Assembly (NCBI GenBank): GCA_047946875.1
Contig: CP181398.1
Span: 969,041-1,033,040 of the forward strand
Direction of reading: 5' to 3'
Origin: Candidatus Kerfeldbacteria bacterium
GTDB lineage: Bacteria > Patescibacteriota > Patescibacteriia > UBA10025 > JAHIVO01
DNA: 64,000 nucleotides
The notes under the pieces are model-generated. The model saw only the letters and a list, made by a program, of their open reading frames with translations. It had not been told where the DNA came from and searched no databases. Numbering within the stretch: position 1 is the stretch's first letter; the number at the start of each line of letters is the position of its first letter. Shown here one piece after another: positions 8,005 to 60,123 of the stretch. The position numbers and the translations under genes were made by a program.

Positions 8005-9571
8005 TGTTTGGTTCAAATAAATAAAATTCATATCCAAAATCTTCCAACGTAACATTACGTCCATATACAATAGTCGGGATATCCAGCGTATAGGAAGGAT
8101 TATAGTCATCGGTAAATATTGGTAATTCGCTCAATGTAAAATGATTCTCCAGTAATTCTCTGCCAAAAAAATTTGGTATCATCCCCCGGAAATCCTGCTC
8201 AACAAATTCACGGTCACTCGCAAAGTACACAATAGATCCATAGCCATCAGGATTAGACACAGAAAATTTCACCATAGAGAAAACACTTGCCAGCGTATTA
8301 TAAACAATGGGTTGCTGGTCTTCGGATTTTATCCATCCCATGGCATTCGTACTCAGGATACCATTGGGTTTGAGGATACTTTTTCCTTCAGTAAAAAACT
8401 CTTCAGTCACCATGTGGATCGATGGTTCAGATCCAATAACTATATCAATCATTATTAAATCATACTTTTTGTCAGTATGACGAACATAGTAACGTGCATC
8501 CTGTACGATATACGTAAAATTATCAGTGGTTGGCAAATCAAAAAATTCAGTACTGAGCTCAATAATGCGTGGATTTATCTCTACGATATCAACATTATGC
8601 GTGGTATCGCTTAACTCTTTGACTACGGCACCTCCGCCCAATCCAAGAATTAGGATATCAAGCTTTTGATCCTCCGGAAAAGCATTAATCGCTCCTCGAA
8701 AATACCGCGTATAAGGCCAGGCGGATGAATTAATATCATAATTCCAACAACTTTGGCTGGACGTATCAATCAGCAGACACCTGATGTTTTGGTTCACTGC
8801 CCGTAGTTCATACAGTTTAATATCCCCAAAATAACTTTGCTCCTTATAGATAATTTTTGCCTGAGCGGGTTGTGACACTACATGTGAAGGTAATAAAAAT
8901 TGGATAATTATCAAGAGAACAATTGTAATGATCGACGTGAATCCTCCTCGTTTCGCAAATAACCAGCCAAGAGCTAATATAATAAGCAATGCTCCGGTTG
9001 TACTAAAAATAACTGACAAAGAAAAATTTGGTATTAGAAAAAATCCGCTTGCAAGCGCGCCCACCAAAGAACCGACAGTGGCTATGGCAAAAATTCTTCC
9101 GCTCTGCATGCCTACTGTCCCGATATCCTTAGTTTGGTACCGAATAGCTATTGGGGAAATAGTACCGAGTAAAAATAATGGGATTGAAAACATAATTACC
9201 GAAGCAACCAAAGGACCAAAACGAATTCCAAAAGAATCCGTCCAAATAAGAATAATGCTGTCTAATTTTGGAATTATTAAAAAAATAATACCGGCTGAAA
9301 AAAGGATAGACACGAATAAATCAGTTATTTTTTTTACTTTGAATATTTTCAGGTCAAACTCTTTATCGTGTAATCTGTCGACAGCTTTGCCTCCAAGCCA
9401 ATACCCTAATGCAAGAAAAGCAAGTGCAGTAGAGATAAGCGAAGACCAAACAAAAATCGTTGAACCATAAAATGGAGAGAGGATCCTAGTACCCAAAATT
9501 TCCAAAACCATGACTGCTGCTCCATTAATAAGCAGTGTAACAACAAGCCAAATTTTATTAAATTTATTCAT
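7994..9571 (-). CDS. Membrane-fused spermidine synthase-like protein (polytopic N-terminal domain + aminopropyltransferase/SAM-MTase fold)
   Basis: About 7 N-terminal hydrophobic helices. The C-terminal domain has LDILILGLGGGAVVKEL (glycine-rich SAM/dcSAM motif), VDIVEINPRIIELS and YDLIMID, typical of SpeE-family enzymes. Starts with an ATG (9569-9571). Confidence 0.65.
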   Translation of the reverse strand: MNKFNKIWLVVTLLINGAAVMVLEILGTRILSPFYGSTIFVWSSLISTALAFLALGYWLGGKAVDRLHDKEFDLKIFKVKKITDLFVSILFSAGIIFLIIPKLDSIILIWTDSFGIRFGPLVASVIMFSIPLFLLGTISPIAIRYQTKDIGTVGMQSGRIFAIATVGSLVGALASGFFLIPNFSLSVIFSTTGALLIILALGWLFAKRGGFTSIITIVLLIIIQFLLPSHVVSQPAQAKIIYKEQSYFGDIKLYELRAVNQNIRCLLIDTSSQSCWNYDINSSAWPYTRYFRGAINAFPEDQKLDILILGLGGGAVVKELSDTTHNVDIVEINPRIIELSTEFFDLPTTDNFTYIVQDARYYVRHTDKKYDLIMIDIVIGSEPSIHMVTEEFFTEGKSILKPNGILSTNAMGWIKSEDQQPIVYNTLASVFSMVKFSVSNPDGYGSIVYFASDREFVEQDFRGMIPNFFGRELLENHFTLSELPIFTDDYNPSYTLDIPTIVYGRNVTLEDFGYEFYLFEPNNEI

Positions 9572-9621: not shown

Positions 9622-9936
9622 CTAATAATCTGCTGTGGCAGTCCAATATATTTCATTCTCACTGATTATATCCTTTCTTAATGTGGCCCCAAAAGGCCAG
9701 TTGGTAGTATATATTGGCAATCCATTATCTATTGATAAAGACAAATTTGGGAGAACAATTACTGACACATATACTTCCTTTTCTACGGATGCAAAACCCC
9801 CACTATCAATGGATTGAGCATTAGTTCCGTTATTAGGCGATAAAAAAATCAATATAAAAATTACTAAAACTAATACTATATTAGCTGTTACCAGCCATTT
9901 TTTTGAATCAATAAAATTTCTCAACATTAAAATCAT
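9622..9936 (-). CDS. Small secreted/membrane-anchored protein, short member of the VLPNLS/C-terminal T-A-x-A-D-[FY] family
   Basis: N-terminal hydrophobic segment LVTANIVLVLVIFILIFL. Carries VSVIVLPNLSLSIDN (compare VSVTVLPNLSMLLDN in the 371-aa protein) and ends YWTATADY (compare TYTAAADF and TYTCAGDF). Its start overlaps the stop of the upstream HTH gene by 4 nt. Confidence 0.5.
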   Translation of the reverse strand: MILMLRNFIDSKKWLVTANIVLVLVIFILIFLSPNNGTNAQSIDSGGFASVEKEVYVSVIVLPNLSLSIDNGLPIYTTNWPFGATLRKDIISENEIYWTATADY

Positions 9937-14565: not shown

Positions 14566-17340
14566 TTATACTTCTTTTAACTCTCCCCAGCTATTACCAA
14601 TCGCGATATCTGTTTTGATTGGAACTTTTAACTTATAAACATTATTCATCTCTTCGGCTATAAACTTAGCTACTTTATCAACTTCTTTCTCAGGAACTTC
14701 AAAAACTAATTCGTCATGCACCTGTAAAATAATTTTTGTTTTATTACTTATAGCGGGAAGTTTTTTATATATATTTATCATCGCAATTTTTAATAAATCA
14801 GCCGCGGTGCCTTGGACTGGCATATTTACTGCCATTCTTTCTGCCGATGCACGCATCTGTGGCATACTTGCATTTATTTCTGGCAAATATCGACGTCGTC
14901 CAAACAATGTCTCAACATACTCTTGGTCTTTGGCCGTGGCAATAGTTGTTGCTAAATATTCTTGGATTTCTTGATGAGTAAAAAAGTATTTTTCTATAAA
15001 TGCTCGAGCTCTTTCTCGAGTCATGCCTTGACGCGTAGCCAGACCCCAAGCTCCCATCCCATACAGAATCCCAAAATTCACTTCCTTAGCTTCATAACGC
15101 TGTTGTTTTGTTACCTCTTCGAGTTCAATGCCGTGTATATCCGCCGCGGTACGTTTATGAATATCCTCATCTTTATTAAATGACTCTATCATTTTTACAT
15201 CTCCGGCTAGAGAGGCTATTATTCTTAGCTCAATCTGAGAATAATCCGCAGCGATAATCTTATAACCTGGTTCCGCCACAAAAGCATTCCTTATTTTTCG
15301 TCCTTCTTCCGTACGAATAGGAATATTTTGTAAATTCGGATCAGATGAAGATAGTCTACCTGTGGCCGTTACTGTTTGATTAAAGCTTGTATGTACTCGC
15401 CCTGTCTTTGGATGAACTAATTTTGGCAGTGCTAATAAATAAGTAGACTGCAGTTTTGCTAATTCACGATAATCAGTTATAAAAGGTATTATCTCATGTC
15501 TATTTTTTAATTTATCCAATTCCGCAGCCGCAGTTGATAGTCCTGTTTTTGTTTTACTTATGCCTTCGGTACTAATTTCCAGTTTTTCGAATAATATTTC
15601 CTTTAGTTGCTTAGGAGAATTAATATTAAAAGTAACTCCTGCTGCTTTATATATATCCTGTTCTAGTTTTTCTAGAGTAGCGCCGGTTTGTTTAGATAGT
15701 TTTTCTAAAAATTTTACATCGATCTTAACCCCATTTTTTTCAATGTCTGCAATTACCTTAACTAGAGGCATTTCAATCTCCCTCATTAATTTTAATAGCT
15801 GCTTCTCCTCTAACTCTTCTTTGAAATAATTACATAAACGCCATGTGTAGTCAGCATCTTCCGCTGCATACCAAGCTAACTTATCTAGAGGTACTACTTC
15901 CATCGGTATTTGATCTTTTCCTTTACCAATTAAGTCAACGATTGGTTGCATGCCATAGTTAAAATTTTCTAAAGCTAAATTATCCAAACTATGACCTCGA
16001 GACCCAGGGTTCAATAAATATGAAGCTATCATACTATCAAAGCTCATAGGATTAAGTATTATGCCAGCTTCTCGTAATATCTCATAATCATATTTCAAAT
16101 TATGCCCACATTTTTTTATTTTTTCATTCTCTAGTAAAATCTTCAAGCTTTTCAACCATGTTTTATTATCCTTGATATTTATATAATATGCTTGATCATC
16201 TTTCCAAGAGAAGCTGACACCCAATAATTTTGCAGACCACGGAACTAGACTAGTCGTCTCTGTGTCTATCGCCATGTACTTCTGCTTGTTGGCCAAAGCT
16301 ATAAAATCTTCAAAGTCTTTATCATTATTAATTAATTTGTATTTAGAATTAGATTTTTTTTCTTCTACAACTTCTTGTTCTACTATCTCCTCTTTAACTT
16401 CTTCTGTTTTCTCAACAATCTTGGCTGGAGCTTTCAGATTTTTTTTTGGTTCTATACCAAATTCCGGCAACCTAGATAACATTGTTTTGAATTCGTACTT
16501 ATTAAACAAATCAAAAATTACCTGACGATCATACGGACGCAATAAACATTCTTCAGGATCAAAATCAATCGGCACGTCCAGGACTATAGTCGCCAATCTT
16601 TTGCTTAACAATGCTTCCTTCTTTTGTTCTGTCAGTAGTTTATATTGTCTTGCTTTGATATCTACATCTTCTCCCTGTTTTTCAATCGCTTCATATATAC
16701 CTTCCAAGCTACCAAACTTTTGTAATAAATACGTAGCACCTTTATCACCTATACCGCGTACCCCAGGAATATTGTCGGAAGGATCACCAGCAATACCTTT
16801 GAGGTCTATAATCTGCTTAGGCTCTAGTCCATATCTTTCACGAAACGCTTCTTCGTCATAAGTAACTGTATCTGACATTCCTTTACGCAAAGTATAAACT
16901 TTTGTTTTTGGAGTAATTAATTGAAATGCGTCTTTATCGCCTGTTACTATAATAGTCTCTAAATTATTTTTTTCATTAATGGTTGCTACTGTACCAATAA
17001 CATCGTCTGCTTCAAATCCTACTTTAGTAAAAACTGGGATATTAAATGCTTTAAGCACTTCTTTAGCCATAGGTATCTGATCATAAAATTCATCAGGTGC
17101 TTTTACTCGACCTGCCTTATACTCTTTGAACTCTTTGTGGCGGAATGTTTTTTCTTTCAAATCAAAAGCGACAGCCATATAAGCAGGCTTTATCTCTTTG
17201 TAAACTTTTAGTAATACATTAGTAAAACCGTAAACAGCATTAATTAGTACTCCTTTTTTAGTAGCAAGAGGTGGTATCGCATGAAAACTTCTATGCAATA
17301 ATGCATTTGCATCTATAATAATAAATTTTTTTGTAGCCAT
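14566..17340 (-). CDS. polA: DNA polymerase I (5'-3' exo, 3'-5' exo and polymerase domains)
   Basis: 924 aa. N-terminal 5'-3' exonuclease MATKKFIIIDANALLHRSFHA. Polymerase motifs RRxxK, DYSQIELR (motif A) and QVHDELV (motif C). Confidence 0.9.
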   Translation of the reverse strand: MATKKFIIIDANALLHRSFHAIPPLATKKGVLINAVYGFTNVLLKVYKEIKPAYMAVAFDLKEKTFRHKEFKEYKAGRVKAPDEFYDQIPMAKEVLKAFNIPVFTKVGFEADDVIGTVATINEKNNLETIIVTGDKDAFQLITPKTKVYTLRKGMSDTVTYDEEAFRERYGLEPKQIIDLKGIAGDPSDNIPGVRGIGDKGATYLLQKFGSLEGIYEAIEKQGEDVDIKARQYKLLTEQKKEALLSKRLATIVLDVPIDFDPEECLLRPYDRQVIFDLFNKYEFKTMLSRLPEFGIEPKKNLKAPAKIVEKTEEVKEEIVEQEVVEEKKSNSKYKLINNDKDFEDFIALANKQKYMAIDTETTSLVPWSAKLLGVSFSWKDDQAYYINIKDNKTWLKSLKILLENEKIKKCGHNLKYDYEILREAGIILNPMSFDSMIASYLLNPGSRGHSLDNLALENFNYGMQPIVDLIGKGKDQIPMEVVPLDKLAWYAAEDADYTWRLCNYFKEELEEKQLLKLMREIEMPLVKVIADIEKNGVKIDVKFLEKLSKQTGATLEKLEQDIYKAAGVTFNINSPKQLKEILFEKLEISTEGISKTKTGLSTAAAELDKLKNRHEIIPFITDYRELAKLQSTYLLALPKLVHPKTGRVHTSFNQTVTATGRLSSSDPNLQNIPIRTEEGRKIRNAFVAEPGYKIIAADYSQIELRIIASLAGDVKMIESFNKDEDIHKRTAADIHGIELEEVTKQQRYEAKEVNFGILYGMGAWGLATRQGMTRERARAFIEKYFFTHQEIQEYLATTIATAKDQEYVETLFGRRRYLPEINASMPQMRASAERMAVNMPVQGTAADLLKIAMINIYKKLPAISNKTKIILQVHDELVFEVPEKEVDKVAKFIAEEMNNVYKLKVPIKTDIAIGNSWGELKEV

Positions 17341-17750
17341 AGTAGATGTATTGTATCAATTTTTTCTTCATCTGACTATCAATTATATCATATTTTTTGA
17401 CAAATTTTTTCGTATATAATAAGATAGAGCCCTGAACATTGTCATTATATAAAAGAAGTACGAATATGAAGATCGAGATGTGGTTTTTTGTTTAGACCGT
17501 TCTAGCAAAGCTCCAAGTCCAAGGACGCGGAGGCCTGCCAAATAGGCTATTCAGAGGGTTGTTCTCGACAGCTCTTATTTTCCTTTCGTTATGTTTCATG
17601 CCAAGAAATATAATTTATGAATGAAGAATGGTTAATGGAAGAGTTAACCAATGGCGAATTCCCACTTCAGGGTCTGGCTAGACTTTTATATAATGATACC
17701 TACTTCAACTATCAATCCAAATAGTTGAGGTATTTTTTATCATATTATAC

Positions 17751-17779
17751 TTGACAAACTTGTTTTTTTGTGCTAATAT
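17751..17779 (+). promoter_or_regulatory. Consensus sigma70-type promoter (TTGACA - 17 nt - TAATAT, with TGn)
   Basis: The sequence reads ttgacaaacttgtttttttgtgctaatat. The spacer is exactly 17 nt and carries an extended -10 TG. Confidence 0.6.
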
Positions 17780-17786
17780 TAAGATG

Positions 17787-17903
17787 TTAGTAAAAATAAA
17801 AATAAAAAGTAAACAAAAAGCTCTTTATATTATGGAGCAATCGCTTACCAATATCTCTTTAACCTCTTTAGAGGGATGCTGGTAGCGATTGCTCCTATTT
17901 TTT
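17787..17903 (+). ncRNA. Candidate ~115-nt small RNA (promoter-to-terminator unit), function unknown
   Basis: It starts ~7 nt after the -10 above. It ends at a 16-bp perfect hairpin, GGAGCAATCGCTTACC (17834-17849) paired with GGTAGCGATTGCTCC (17881-17895), followed by tattttttt. The only internal ORF is 17 codons (MEQSLTNISLTSLEGCW), with no SD sequence. Confidence 0.4.
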
Positions 17904-17908
17904 TACCC

Positions 17909-17937
17909 TTGACATTTTACCTATAACAATCTACTAT
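17909..17937 (+). promoter_or_regulatory. Sigma70-like promoter for the 18010 gene (TTGACA - 17 nt - TACTAT)
   Basis: The sequence reads ttgacattttacctataacaatctactat. It sits directly after the sRNA terminator, ~70 nt upstream of the RBS aaggagg of the 18010 CDS. Confidence 0.45.
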
Positions 17938-18009
17938 TACAAATTATATTTGATAGCTATTTTAAATTGCAACTTAAAAAACCGTCAAATTCCAAGGAGG
18001 AATTAAAAA

Positions 18010-18483
18010 ATGGCAAGTAAAAAGGATTGTAATCGTACAACATCAATTGAAACTCTTCACACCATTACCGAATATTCGAGTGGAAAAGCTAGAATTGCTC
18101 GTAACAGAGTTATTCATCTCAATAATCTATTGAACGTTCTTCTAGAACCGACATTCAATGAAGGAGAGGCCGCTCGCATTATTGATGGTCTAAAAAAACT
18201 TCGTTGCCCAAGTCAGATGATTCAAACTCGAGTACTGAGTGTCTTAGCTTTTCACGAAGCTATGGATCCAGATAAATGGTCAAACTGCCGCGGTGAATGG
18301 ATAAAAGCTTGCGGTAGATTGGAAATTTCTGAATTCGCCACCGGTCAAGCCATCAGTGTCGGACAAAGTATTCGAGCTCAATTGTACCTTGAAAAAGCAA
18401 ATAAAAAGAATTTCCAAGTTGAAATTCGAAAAGAAGTCCAAAAAGTTTTCTTTGGTGCTAAACGAGTCATCAAACAACTATAA
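18010..18483 (+). CDS. Hypothetical protein (157 aa), elevated GC relative to the surroundings
   Basis: Strong RBS ccaaggaggaattaaaaaATG. No recognisable motifs. GC is about 40% against roughly 30-33% in the flanking housekeeping genes. Confidence 0.55.
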   Translation: MASKKDCNRTTSIETLHTITEYSSGKARIARNRVIHLNNLLNVLLEPTFNEGEAARIIDGLKKLRCPSQMIQTRVLSVLAFHEAMDPDKWSNCRGEWIKACGRLEISEFATGQAISVGQSIRAQLYLEKANKKNFQVEIRKEVQKVFFGAKRVIKQL

Positions 18484-18494
18484 CAAAAAATTAT

Positions 18495-18528
18495 CCCCCG
18501 CATATGAAATACTATGCGGGCTTTTTTT
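18495..18528 (+). terminator. Intrinsic terminator after the 18010 gene
   Basis: CCCGCATAtgaaatacTATGCGGG followed by cttttttt. Confidence 0.75.
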
Positions 18529-18576
18529 AATAAAAAAATCCCCTAATCATACTATAATGACTAGGGGGGGTTATTA

Positions 18577-19932
18577 TTATCGTTTGCGAGTTAAGGCTCT
18601 GTGAGATGTTATTTTATCTCCTTTGCCACGCTTATGCTTAACGACAAACGTCTCGCCTTCTTGGAGCTCTATACCAAACTCTTCGAATGCTAACAATCTT
18701 GCAGCAGGCGAAGCTTTATGCCCTTCAGGAAGTCTCCGAATATGTTCAGTAACTTCATGACGTCGCTTAATACTCATACGTCGTTCTGTTTCCTGAACAC
18801 CCTCTTCTACCTCCCGGGAGAGCATATCATTTATTCTAGACATATTGTCCAATGAACGAATTCTTGGAACAACAAGATCAGAAATCGATGATAGCTTTTT
18901 TCTCGTTACTACATTTATTGCACGTTCCGACCAAGTTGGTTTTGGTCCAGTTATCGAAGGAATTGTAGCAACAACTTCAATAGGTGCAATGAGATCATAC
19001 AGACAGAACATCAATTGCATTCGTAACGCATGATATTCTAGTTCACGTCCTTCTTGTTCAAAAATACGACGTACTAGACTTTGATCAAAACCGGCGGTTA
19101 AATCTAAGTTACCCTGCCAGTTCATGCTCCAAACAAATTTCCCATCAAATGGTAATTTAACCCAGTTAACTTCAGTGGAACCAACACCGGTTTCATGATG
19201 ATATTGTGGGCGAAGATCTATCAACCCTCTTTTCCCAGCTAATGCAATCTGAGCGACATAGTTGTCAGATGTAGCTGGGCCACCAGGAAAAGTTTTGCCC
19301 ATGAAATCTCTGTACCCCCAGAAAACCCAGGCATCATTTGGTGATGTCATTTTTTGAAGCTCAAAAAATGAAGGCTTCACACCATATTTACGAATTTCTC
19401 GAAGCTTCTCCATCATCTCGATCATATATCGATCGATCTCGGTAATGGAAGATTCAATAGTATCACGTAAATGTAAGCCGGCGGGGATCTTCAGACCATT
19501 AACATACGAACGGGTTTGTCTAGTCTGTTCGATGGCTTGTTTTAGAATCAATAATTTCGGATAAAACCAAACCGTCCGCTTATCTTCACTATCTTTAATT
19601 TCTCCGATGGTTGTTTTGAGTTGTTTCTCAGCTTTATCTGCTTCAGTTATATCCAAAGCAAACTGATAAGCAAGGGCTCGAATGATAGGATTACTCATCA
19701 CTGTAGTAGCTTTGAACCCAATTGCTTTGATTTTTGCTTGGTCAATACTATAACAAAGTCCAAGAAAAGTTTGCAATGAATCATCAAAATTTTTACCAAA
19801 CATGAAGCGTTTATAAATCGATTCAGATAAGGTTAAAATTTTATCAACTGATGCTCTGGTTCTAACAATTATGCCAACTTGACTCTCAAACTGCTTAAAC
19901 CCTGCAATCTCTCGGATATACATCTCAGGCAT
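18577..19932 (-). CDS. Hypothetical protein (451 aa), basic C-terminus, no recognisable family
   Basis: Long ORF with balanced, non-low-complexity composition. Ends ...VKHKRGKGDKITSHRALTRKR. Elevated GC. A hairpin (cccctaatcatactataatgactaggggg) lies just downstream of the stop. Confidence 0.55.
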   Translation of the reverse strand: MPEMYIREIAGFKQFESQVGIIVRTRASVDKILTLSESIYKRFMFGKNFDDSLQTFLGLCYSIDQAKIKAIGFKATTVMSNPIIRALAYQFALDITEADKAEKQLKTTIGEIKDSEDKRTVWFYPKLLILKQAIEQTRQTRSYVNGLKIPAGLHLRDTIESSITEIDRYMIEMMEKLREIRKYGVKPSFFELQKMTSPNDAWVFWGYRDFMGKTFPGGPATSDNYVAQIALAGKRGLIDLRPQYHHETGVGSTEVNWVKLPFDGKFVWSMNWQGNLDLTAGFDQSLVRRIFEQEGRELEYHALRMQLMFCLYDLIAPIEVVATIPSITGPKPTWSERAINVVTRKKLSSISDLVVPRIRSLDNMSRINDMLSREVEEGVQETERRMSIKRRHEVTEHIRRLPEGHKASPAARLLAFEEFGIELQEGETFVVKHKRGKGDKITSHRALTRKR

Positions 19933-20037
19933 CTAAAAACCTCCTTGTTTTTTAATATACAATTTTTATTTTTCATTAGACATTAGCAAAAAGAAAGTAT
20001 TTTGTCAAGCCCTAGGAAGAAATAAAATATATAAATT

Positions 20038-20077
20038 AAAAACCCCATTTCATATGATCTGGGGTTTTGTTTTTTTG
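20038..20077. terminator. Bidirectional intrinsic terminator downstream of the 20082..20636 gene
   Basis: aAACCCCAtttcatatgatcTGGGGTTttgttttttt, with A-rich sequence on the other side. Confidence 0.65.
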
Positions 20078-20081
20078 TCTA

Positions 20082-20636
20082 TTATTTTGGATTGGCGGCT
20101 ACCCATACTTTCCATAGGGGGGCAAAGTACGGATTGGAGCTTATCGAAACATATTCTTTTGCTTGCTCCAGAGTGATCCAATCAAAATATACTGCCAATA
20201 CAAGGCACAGAGCCTCATCAGCCAATTCCGGAAGTCCAGAGAATGATACGGCAAATTCCCCGCACCATACGGCACCACCGAATTGATTGGAACTTTCGTT
20301 ACGTGATTGCCATGATAATACATGACCTTGTTGAGCCATTAGGATAAGTCGCTTGGCTTTTTCCTGCGAACACCATAGAAATTTACGGGCCCGGGTTGTG
20401 TGAATAGAATCAGAAGTTATAACGTGTAAGATTGTACCAATACGACAACACAGTAGTAATTCTTCTGATGATTTTAGGCGAATGGTGAGATATCCACCTT
20501 TACGAATCTCTTGGAATTCCGGAAAACCGTTCAGTAACTGCATAACCTCCTCTGCCGCAGATAGAATTACAGGTAATGCAAAGTTTGTACTTTGGCTGAC
20601 ATCGGTTTTCGTGAAATCAACGTTTACGTCTGTCAT
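20082..20636 (-). CDS. Hypothetical protein (184 aa)
   Basis: ORF with elevated GC (about 42%). Cys/Trp/His content is unusual for this genome. No recognisable motif. Confidence 0.5.
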   Translation of the reverse strand: MTDVNVDFTKTDVSQSTNFALPVILSAAEEVMQLLNGFPEFQEIRKGGYLTIRLKSSEELLLCCRIGTILHVITSDSIHTTRARKFLWCSQEKAKRLILMAQQGHVLSWQSRNESSNQFGGAVWCGEFAVSFSGLPELADEALCLVLAVYFDWITLEQAKEYVSISSNPYFAPLWKVWVAANPK

Positions 20637-33716: not shown

Positions 33717-33745
33717 ATTTTAGCACAAAAAACGACCTTAGTAAA
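33717..33745 (-). promoter_or_regulatory. Copy 3 of the recurrent promoter cassette (minus strand: TTTACT - 17 nt - TGcTAAAAT)
   Basis: The plus strand reads ...atttctacctttattttagcacaaaaaacgaccttagtaaa. The reverse complement gives TTTACTaaggtcgttttttgtgcTAAAAT. It lies ~60 nt after the stop of the last metalloprotease gene and ~300 nt upstream of the 33411 start. Confidence 0.45.
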
Positions 33746-54541: not shown

Positions 54542-54570
54542 ACTATGGCACAAAAAATCCCTTTAGTCAA
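54542..54570 (-). promoter_or_regulatory. Copy 2 of the recurrent promoter cassette: TTGACT - 17 nt - TGcCATAGT (minus strand), 140 nt upstream of the first metalloprotease gene
   Basis: The plus strand reads tttctaccctaactatggcacaaaaaatccctttagtcaa. The reverse complement gives TTGACTaaagggattttttgtgcCATAGTtagggtagaaa. It is the only promoter-like element between the subtilase stop (54737) and the 54399 start. Confidence 0.55.
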
Positions 54571-58179: not shown

Positions 58180-58208
58180 AACTATAGCACAAAAAAGCCC
58201 TTTAGTCA
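58180..58208 (-). promoter_or_regulatory. Copy 1 of the recurrent promoter cassette: TTGACT - 17 nt - TGcTATAGT (minus strand) ~45 nt upstream of the subtilase start
   Basis: The plus strand reads tttctaccttaactatagcacaaaaaagccctttagtcaa. The reverse complement gives TTGACTaaagggcttttttgtgcTATAGTtaaggtagaaa, a consensus extended -10 promoter. Confidence 0.6.
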
Positions 58209-58247
58209 ATTTGAAACTAAATATTTTTTTTATTTATTTAGATAATT

Positions 58248-60036: not shown

Positions 60037-60123
60037 GCCGAGGTGGTGAAATTGGTAGACACGCTAGCCTTAGGAGCTAGTGCTTGTAAAAGCATGGGAG
60101 TTCAAGTCTCCCCCTCGGCACCA
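60037..60123 (+). tRNA. tRNA-Leu (anticodon TAG), class II long variable arm, CCA encoded
   Basis: GCCGAGGTGGTGAAATTGGTAGACACGCTAGCCTTAGGAGCTAGTGCTTGTAAAAGCATGGGAGTTCAAGTCTCCCCCTCGGCACCA. The 7-bp acceptor stem GCCGAGG pairs with CCTCGGC. Anticodon loop CTTAGGA. Long variable arm. T-loop GTTCAAGTC. Confidence 0.85.

Follow-up and report, generated by a model that had tools for sequence, protein, structure and literature searches.

A candidate small RNA unit in the polA intergenic gap

The window, the whole stretch of 64,000 nucleotides of Candidatus Kerfeldbacteria DNA that was analysed, carries polA on its minus strand (14566-17340), and a gap of 670 bp separates this gene from an orphan open reading frame of 157 amino acids on the plus strand (18010-18483). 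The gap holds a candidate small RNA unit, all parts of which lie on the plus strand. Its promoter (17751-17779), which was read directly in the sequence and also returned by a promoter scan, consists of a -35 box TTGACA (17751-17756), a T-rich spacer of 17 nt and a -10 box TAATAT (17774-17779), with the TG of an extended -10 at 17771-17772, just as an earlier note made from the sequence alone had described it. The pattern TTGAC-N13-TGYGCTAWWNT has seven occurrences in the window where 0.05 are expected, and promoters of this pattern also drive protein genes there; it is a genuine local strong promoter type.

From promoter geometry only, the RNA is predicted to start near G17786. Its 5' leader (17786-17833) would contain an A-rich (AAN)n tract, AAAAAUAAAAAUAAAAAG, at 17792-17809, which equals (AAN)6 and has no other copy in the window at up to two mismatches, and a GCUCUUU box at 17820-17826. 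A possible weak 5' hairpin within the leader, P1 (17802-17828), was set aside, its covariation support being too weak. The leader is followed by a 62-nt imperfect hairpin (17834-17895), to which the fold, the covariation and the covariance-model score all point. The stem had been taken for a perfect one of 16 bp; it is instead built of three helices of 12, 4 and 11 bp, about 27 pairs, with a bulged U between the first and the second and a 1x1 internal loop between the second and the third. The lower stem holds a CAAUC/GAUUG box and the upper stem an invariant U·G plus C-G step, and the apical loop is variable. The hairpin has a folding energy of -37.6 kcal/mol (z = -9.5), which none of 200 shuffles equalled, and the entire predicted RNA one of -42.1 kcal/mol (z = -8.3). 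Directly 3' of it comes the U-rich tail UAUUUUUUU (U A U7, 17896-17904). The terminator-like hairpin with its U-run (17834-17904) was thus found after the promoter as previously claimed, and we infer that the two form an intrinsic terminator that would set the 3' end of the RNA.

A second promoter (17909-17937), with TTGACA at 17909-17914, a 17-nt spacer and TACTAT at 17932-17937, had likewise been seen ahead of the 18010 gene and was returned by the promoter scan. Next come AAGGAGG at 17994-18000 and, at 18010, the start codon ATG. This promoter is that of the 157-aa gene and lies outside the small RNA. Within the unit there is a 17-codon open reading frame (17832-17885, plus strand) which was judged non-coding; it lacks a Shine-Dalgarno sequence, as had been said, and it is not the only internal one, since a 16-codon frame begins at AUG 17876. 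On the opposite strand of 17780-17908 no credible gene is present, which does not fit a cis-antisense RNA, and in the related genome L095 the overlap with the end of a convergent gene is limited to the last few bases of the unit.

Conservation of the unit in related genomes

Relatives were reached through homologues of the 157-aa protein (L083) and through closer polA relatives from a large protein collection. The 157-aa and polA proteins of the window are identical to proteins of the Candidatus Kerfeldbacteria MAG GCA_008633345.1. The full unit was found in eight genomes, namely that of the window, L083, L088, L090, L092, L093, L094 and L096. Among the carriers with polA on the contig, polA has 59-74 % identity with that of the window (74 % in L088, 70 % in L090, 66 % in L092 and 59 % in L096, which is a Kerfeldbacteria genome). 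A covariance model built from five sequences regained all of these with 108-137 bits and further matched L093 (71.7 bits), L094 (52.5 bits) and L096 (74.7 bits). Over the eight genomes the scores range from 52 to 137 bits, with one copy per scanned locus (one per genome), and the hairpin is conserved in the relatives, the covariance model having matches in seven further genomes. Other polA loci (682 kb), which served as negative control, all scored at most 29 bits, and when 29 sources were scanned, about 376 kb with the window and the carrier loci among them, the non-carrier loci gave nothing above 23 bits. The GTDB representative genomes reached through polA, the nearest of which is 56 % identical, showed neither synteny upstream of polA nor a copy of the RNA. 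The only match of the exact-stem pattern in JGI metagenomes (L086) is an unrelated terminal palindrome. The first of two scans of viral contigs gave no match, and the match in the other (L097) lies in a coding region and was rejected by the covariance model.

A ninth genome, L095, has kept the promoter and the A-rich leader, and its terminator hairpin is shorter, different and without the conserved boxes. Between the window and L083 the promoter-to-terminator unit is about 93 % identical, with 61 of 62 positions in the hairpin, whereas the 157-aa homologues are 60 % identical and their coding sequences 65 %. The second promoter and the 5' UTR have diverged between these two; a TTGACA promoter nonetheless lies again 3' of the terminator in L083 and in L090. 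Since change at four-fold degenerate sites has reached saturation in the neighbouring genes (32-47 % identical), the conservation of the unit reflects selection and not recent common ancestry, and because it is conserved in other genomes the unit is far beyond chance.

Mean pairwise identity over seven genomes is 0.29 in the 51 nt upstream of the -35 box, 0.79 in the 29-nt promoter, 0.73 in the A-rich leader, 0.67-0.69 in the stem arms, 0.48 in the upper stem and loop, 0.67 in the U-tail and 0.32 in the 60 nt 3' of the tail. By these boundaries the conserved object is exactly one predicted transcription unit, from the -35 box to the U-run. The 29-nt promoter architecture precedes every homologue, the leader tract is nearly invariant over the eight genomes, the GCUCUUU box is conserved in six of the eight sequences, and all homologues have the U-run, with tails of U7-8.

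In all eight genomes with polA on the contig the unit is located upstream of this gene, at a distance of no more than 5 kb, and is oriented divergently; the contig of L083 starts at the promoter of the unit and covers the downstream side. The unit directly adjoins polA in L090, L092 and L096, and it is kept in L093, L094 and L095, where 1-3 kb of genes lie between the two.

Several other elements were observed in this interval. The species of the window, and no other, seems to have acquired an insert of about 330 bp (approximately 17405-17734) that separates polA from the small RNA promoter; in L090, L092 and L096 this promoter is less than 100 nt from the polA start. The insert is flanked by a direct repeat with a copy of the -35 box (TTATATCATATT..TTGACAAAT at 17383-17405 and TTTTATCATATT..TTGACAAAC at 17735-17759). 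It holds a perfect 14-bp inverted repeat (17442-17455 / 17683-17696), a 35-codon open reading frame (17619-17726) and a terminator-like hairpin (17701-17732), its fold has a z of -4.2, and possible readings are a MITE-like element and a further small transcript. In L088 (about 9660-9890, corresponding to 1381-1599 of L089) an open reading frame for a cysteine-rich protein of 72 amino acids, with CxxC repeats and zinc-finger-like, lies between polA and the small RNA. A different promoter-to-terminator unit is found directly upstream of polA in L093 (5818-5925, minus strand), with a C-rich terminator loop, CCCUCCCUCCUU, that is anti-Shine-Dalgarno-like, and with a TTGACA promoter at once after it. 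As the family member of this genome lies 2.3 kb away, the L093 unit may be an unrelated sRNA in the ancestral slot.

Covariation of the hairpin and comparison with known RNAs

Covariation in genomes of the lineage, which the earlier note had named as a check on the structure, was assessed in an alignment of eight sequences with 34 modelled pairs, 27 of them in the main hairpin, and was found. Changes on both sides occur in 19 of the 34 pairs overall and in 17 of the 27 hairpin pairs, counts that include inherited changes because only eight or nine genomes of one clade contribute. Paired cells amount to 92.9 % overall and to 95.3 % in the main hairpin, compared with 39-48 % when the partners are slid, and none of 500 shuffles reaches the observed covariation values. 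An independent RNAalifold run was also made. The outer stem reads GGAGCAAUCGCU/AGCGAUUGCUCC in the window, GGGACAAUCGUC/GACGAUUGUCCC in L088 and GGGGACAAUCACU/AGUGAUUGUCCCC in L092. Inside the covarying helices the CAAUC/GAUUG box is constant, save for a change from C-G to U-A at its first pair in L094, and the U·G plus C-G step of the upper stem is invariant. The covariance-model score for the window is 132 bits on the plus strand and 33 bits on the minus strand. Because of this difference and of the invariant G·U pairs the fold is placed on the promoter strand, which argues for an RNA over a double-stranded DNA site.

At gathering thresholds, Rfam 15 gave only a tRNA at 60037 in the window. 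A permissive search of the unit gave best scores of 19-22 bits against gathering thresholds of 48-56, and the L090 and L096 copies each gave different sub-threshold chance matches. The unit matches no described RNA family in Rfam 15. The Rfam/Infernal scan that had been suggested for it was thus run and assigned no family, and it was the covariance model of the unit itself that found homologues.

Class II Hfq-binding sRNAs of Proteobacteria, of the ChiX and MgrR type, have an (ARN)n stretch, a terminator hairpin and a U-tail, and act in trans. The leader and U-tail of the unit resemble this layout, (ARN)n with a U-rich tail after the terminator hairpin being present, and the likeness would extend to a stand-alone gene of about 100 nt with A-R-N repeats and a long U-tail. 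However, the hairpin of the small RNA is far longer (27 bp) and has conserved boxes, no complex seed is visible and there is no sequence homology in Rfam. A literature search for Hfq in CPR bacteria returned nothing relevant. Like ctRNA_pT181 and RNAI/CopA, the small RNA is also short, has an A-rich 5' part and ends in a U-tail after a long and stable hairpin, and ctRNA_pT181 was among the best Rfam matches, at an insignificant 21.6 bits (gathering score 56, E = 3.8). Unlike these plasmid countertranscripts it is chromosomal and single-copy and has no gene on the opposite strand, and the apical loop, the functional part of countertranscripts, is its least conserved part.

With 4.5S/SRP and 6S RNA it has in common the single copy, a strong promoter, a conserved position and one long imperfect helix. 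It has, however, neither a GNAR tetraloop nor domain IV loops and no Rfam match to SRP RNA at any threshold, and for a 6S RNA it has no central bubble, is too short and gives no Rfam 6S match at any threshold. Unlike both, the family is confined to a narrow clade. It represents a previously undescribed RNA family of an ordinary type, seen up to now in one clade of Kerfeldbacteria only.

Interpretation as a probable trans-acting small RNA

Taken as a whole, the unit is best read as a stand-alone, trans-acting, non-coding small RNA of about 120 nt, with a probability of roughly 0.65. An independent sRNA was one of the two readings offered by the earlier note, and it is supported by a conserved block with the -35 box at one end and the U-run at the other, by the covariation of the hairpin and by the single copy per genome; the interpretation given in that note is overall partly supported. 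We infer that a strong housekeeping-type promoter would start transcription near 17786 and that the long hairpin and the U-run would end it near 17903, giving a single-stranded A-rich (AAN)n leader joined to a very stable 27-bp hairpin. The product would act in trans and not on the neighbouring gene. Its likeliest mode, less certain than the small RNA reading as a whole, would be that of a protein-bound RNA, the hairpin doubling as terminator and as protector or stabiliser of the 3' end. The leader would offer no specific base-pairing seed because its complexity is too low. Sequence-invariant boxes in covarying helices are the usual signature of protein recognition, and they therefore suggest that a protein reads the hairpin at these boxes. 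Even L095 has retained the leader.

Some observations count against this interpretation. Compositional or promoter-proximal constraints, and not a binding surface, could account for the A-rich leader, the conserved boxes are not indispensable since in L095 the hairpin has been replaced by a shorter one without them, and the constant linkage to polA is also a point against it.

A tentative extension of the small RNA reading is that in these ultra-small CPR bacteria the RNA would either form the scaffold of a housekeeping ribonucleoprotein specific to the lineage or sequester proteins as a global regulator. In that case a protein would recognise the CAAUC/GAUUG box together with the U·G wobble, and a second factor would bind to the (AAN)n leader. 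If true, it would rank with the earliest regulatory RNAs to be defined in Patescibacteria and might have a functional tie to polA. CPR bacteria have tiny genomes and are mostly unculturable, and a literature search for regulatory or small RNAs in them found almost nothing published. The unit adds a covariation-supported small RNA family from CPR with a clear promoter, terminator and invariant boxes, with a covariance model that is usable on all CPR genomes, and the family may serve as a defined bait for RNA-binding proteins in these bacteria.

It is doubtful that the RNA would instead be a base-pairing antisense sRNA, blocking the ribosome binding sites of its targets with the anti-Shine-Dalgarno-like apical loop AACCUCUUUAG or with the GCUCUUU box. 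The loop CCUCUUU of the window and L083 is able by its sequence to pair with AAGGAGG, and the GCUCUUU box is kept in the six sequences counted above, but the sequence of the apical loop is not conserved in L088, L090, L092, L093, L094 or L096. The leader of L090 can pair over 14 bp (-19 kcal/mol) with the adjacent 88-aa gene at codons 2-7, a match that is absent in L088 although the leader there is the same, and duplexes with adjacent 5' UTRs are no better than those with shuffled targets (p = 0.07-0.15).

An element without RNA function, acting at the level of DNA or transcription as an insulator by polA or as a protein-bound palindrome, is unlikely. It would agree with the divergent position within 5 kb of polA wherever polA is on the contig, with the CAATC...GATTG boxes, which form a DNA palindrome, and with L095, where the promoter and leader are combined with a different terminator. 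However, compensatory changes keep the pairing over 27 bp, which a double-stranded DNA site would not require, and the opposite strand would have A·C mismatches in place of the G·U pairs. Conservation also extends to the leader between the promoter and the hairpin, and the unit persists in L093, L094 and L095 despite the insertions of 1-3 kb of genes toward polA.

The other reading of the earlier note, a cis-acting leader or attenuator whose hairpin stops or releases transcription and so controls the 157-aa gene together with the island that follows, is very improbable. As in attenuators and leader RNAs, a promoter is followed by a terminator within about 120 nt, and both lie directly upstream of a co-directional gene in four genomes (the window, L083, L088 and L090). 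This reading fails because the downstream genes differ or are convergent. The next gene 3' of the unit encodes 157 amino acids in the window and in L083, 88 in L090 and 774 in L088, and the 157-aa and 88-aa proteins are unrelated, without BLASTP similarity and with an insignificant hhalign result (probability 0.35 %, E = 0.17), by which the L090 protein was ruled out as a homologue. In L092, L093, L094, L095 and L096 (five of nine genomes) the next gene is convergent, and therefore there is nothing downstream to control. A separate promoter follows the terminator in the window, L083 and L090. Moreover, no conserved antiterminator structure of the kind that attenuators have is visible, and the only candidate for such an alternative pairing, GCUC (17820-17823) with GAGC (17835-17838), picked out by eye in the window sequence, is not kept in L088 or L090. 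The leader itself is a 50-nt low-complexity A-rich tract and not aptamer-like. As for the island, which had been described as GC-elevated, its GC content is indeed 0.39-0.41 at 18000-19500 compared with about 0.33 nearby, though the elevation is modest only, and its 451-aa and 184-aa genes are a later insertion; by synteny they are absent in L082 and L083, which run straight to YdjM.

A small-protein gene has next to no probability, since the 17-codon frame and the hydrophobic 16-codon frame in the hairpin, though present, and though the one position at which the hairpins of the window and L083 differ is a synonymous change in the first of these frames, have no Shine-Dalgarno sequence, the AUG of the 17-codon frame is ACG, UAG, AAG or CAG in L088, L090, L092, L096, L093 and L094, an indel between the window and L083 shifts its upstream frame, the length of the other frame differs between the window (16 codons) and L083 (11), and the substitutions track base pairing and not codon position.

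The genes and elements around the small RNA were also described. The 451-aa and 184-aa orphan genes of the window (18577-20636, minus strand) lie between the 157-aa gene and YdjM only here, and neither has a match in Pfam, PADLOC or NCBIfam. The interval from YdjM to polA is a variable hot spot, with other gene sets in L088 and L090. The 157-aa family has four members in 5.8 billion proteins. The protein itself has no Pfam, PADLOC or NCBIfam match, and its model is all-helical (mean pLDDT 79, pTM 0.79) with no match to PDB folds at E < 0.9. Its gene is inconsistently linked to the RNA, as L082, L084 and L085 have no RNA upstream of it. In L085 (333-401, corresponding to 543-611 of L084) an unrelated long hairpin, GGGTCGGGGAGTTCC...GGGAACTCC...TCCCCGACCC, which the covariance model does not recognise, precedes the most distant 157-aa homologue (53 % identical).

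The terminator after the 157-aa gene (CCCGCATATGAAATACTATGCGGGCTTTTTTT, 18497-18520 of the window) is 100 % identical in L083 (about 775-810), where the coding sequence beside it is only 65 % identical, and a similar terminator, ...ATGCGGGCTTTTTT, follows the unrelated 88-aa gene of L090 (about 9400-9440). A 5' UTR motif, AACCGUCA(N3-7)CAAGGAGGAA, is common to the window, L083 and L090 and has diverged in L084 (AACCGUCU...AAGGAGG). The UTRs of the 157-aa and 88-aa genes thus look conserved while the coding sequence has apparently diverged or been replaced.

Elsewhere in the window, three near-identical units of promoter and initial transcript lie on the minus strand (33717-33745, 54542-54570 and 58181-58209), with the sequence TTGACTAAAGGGnTTTTTTGTGCYATAGT-TARGGTAGAAAT... 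and long A/T-rich leaders. They are near the three large repeated gene copies, direct repeats that lie between about 35.8 and 54.4 kb. In their initial transcribed sequence these units are similar to the small RNA of L093 and L096, and the leader at 54542 has a possible G-rich/C-rich hairpin.
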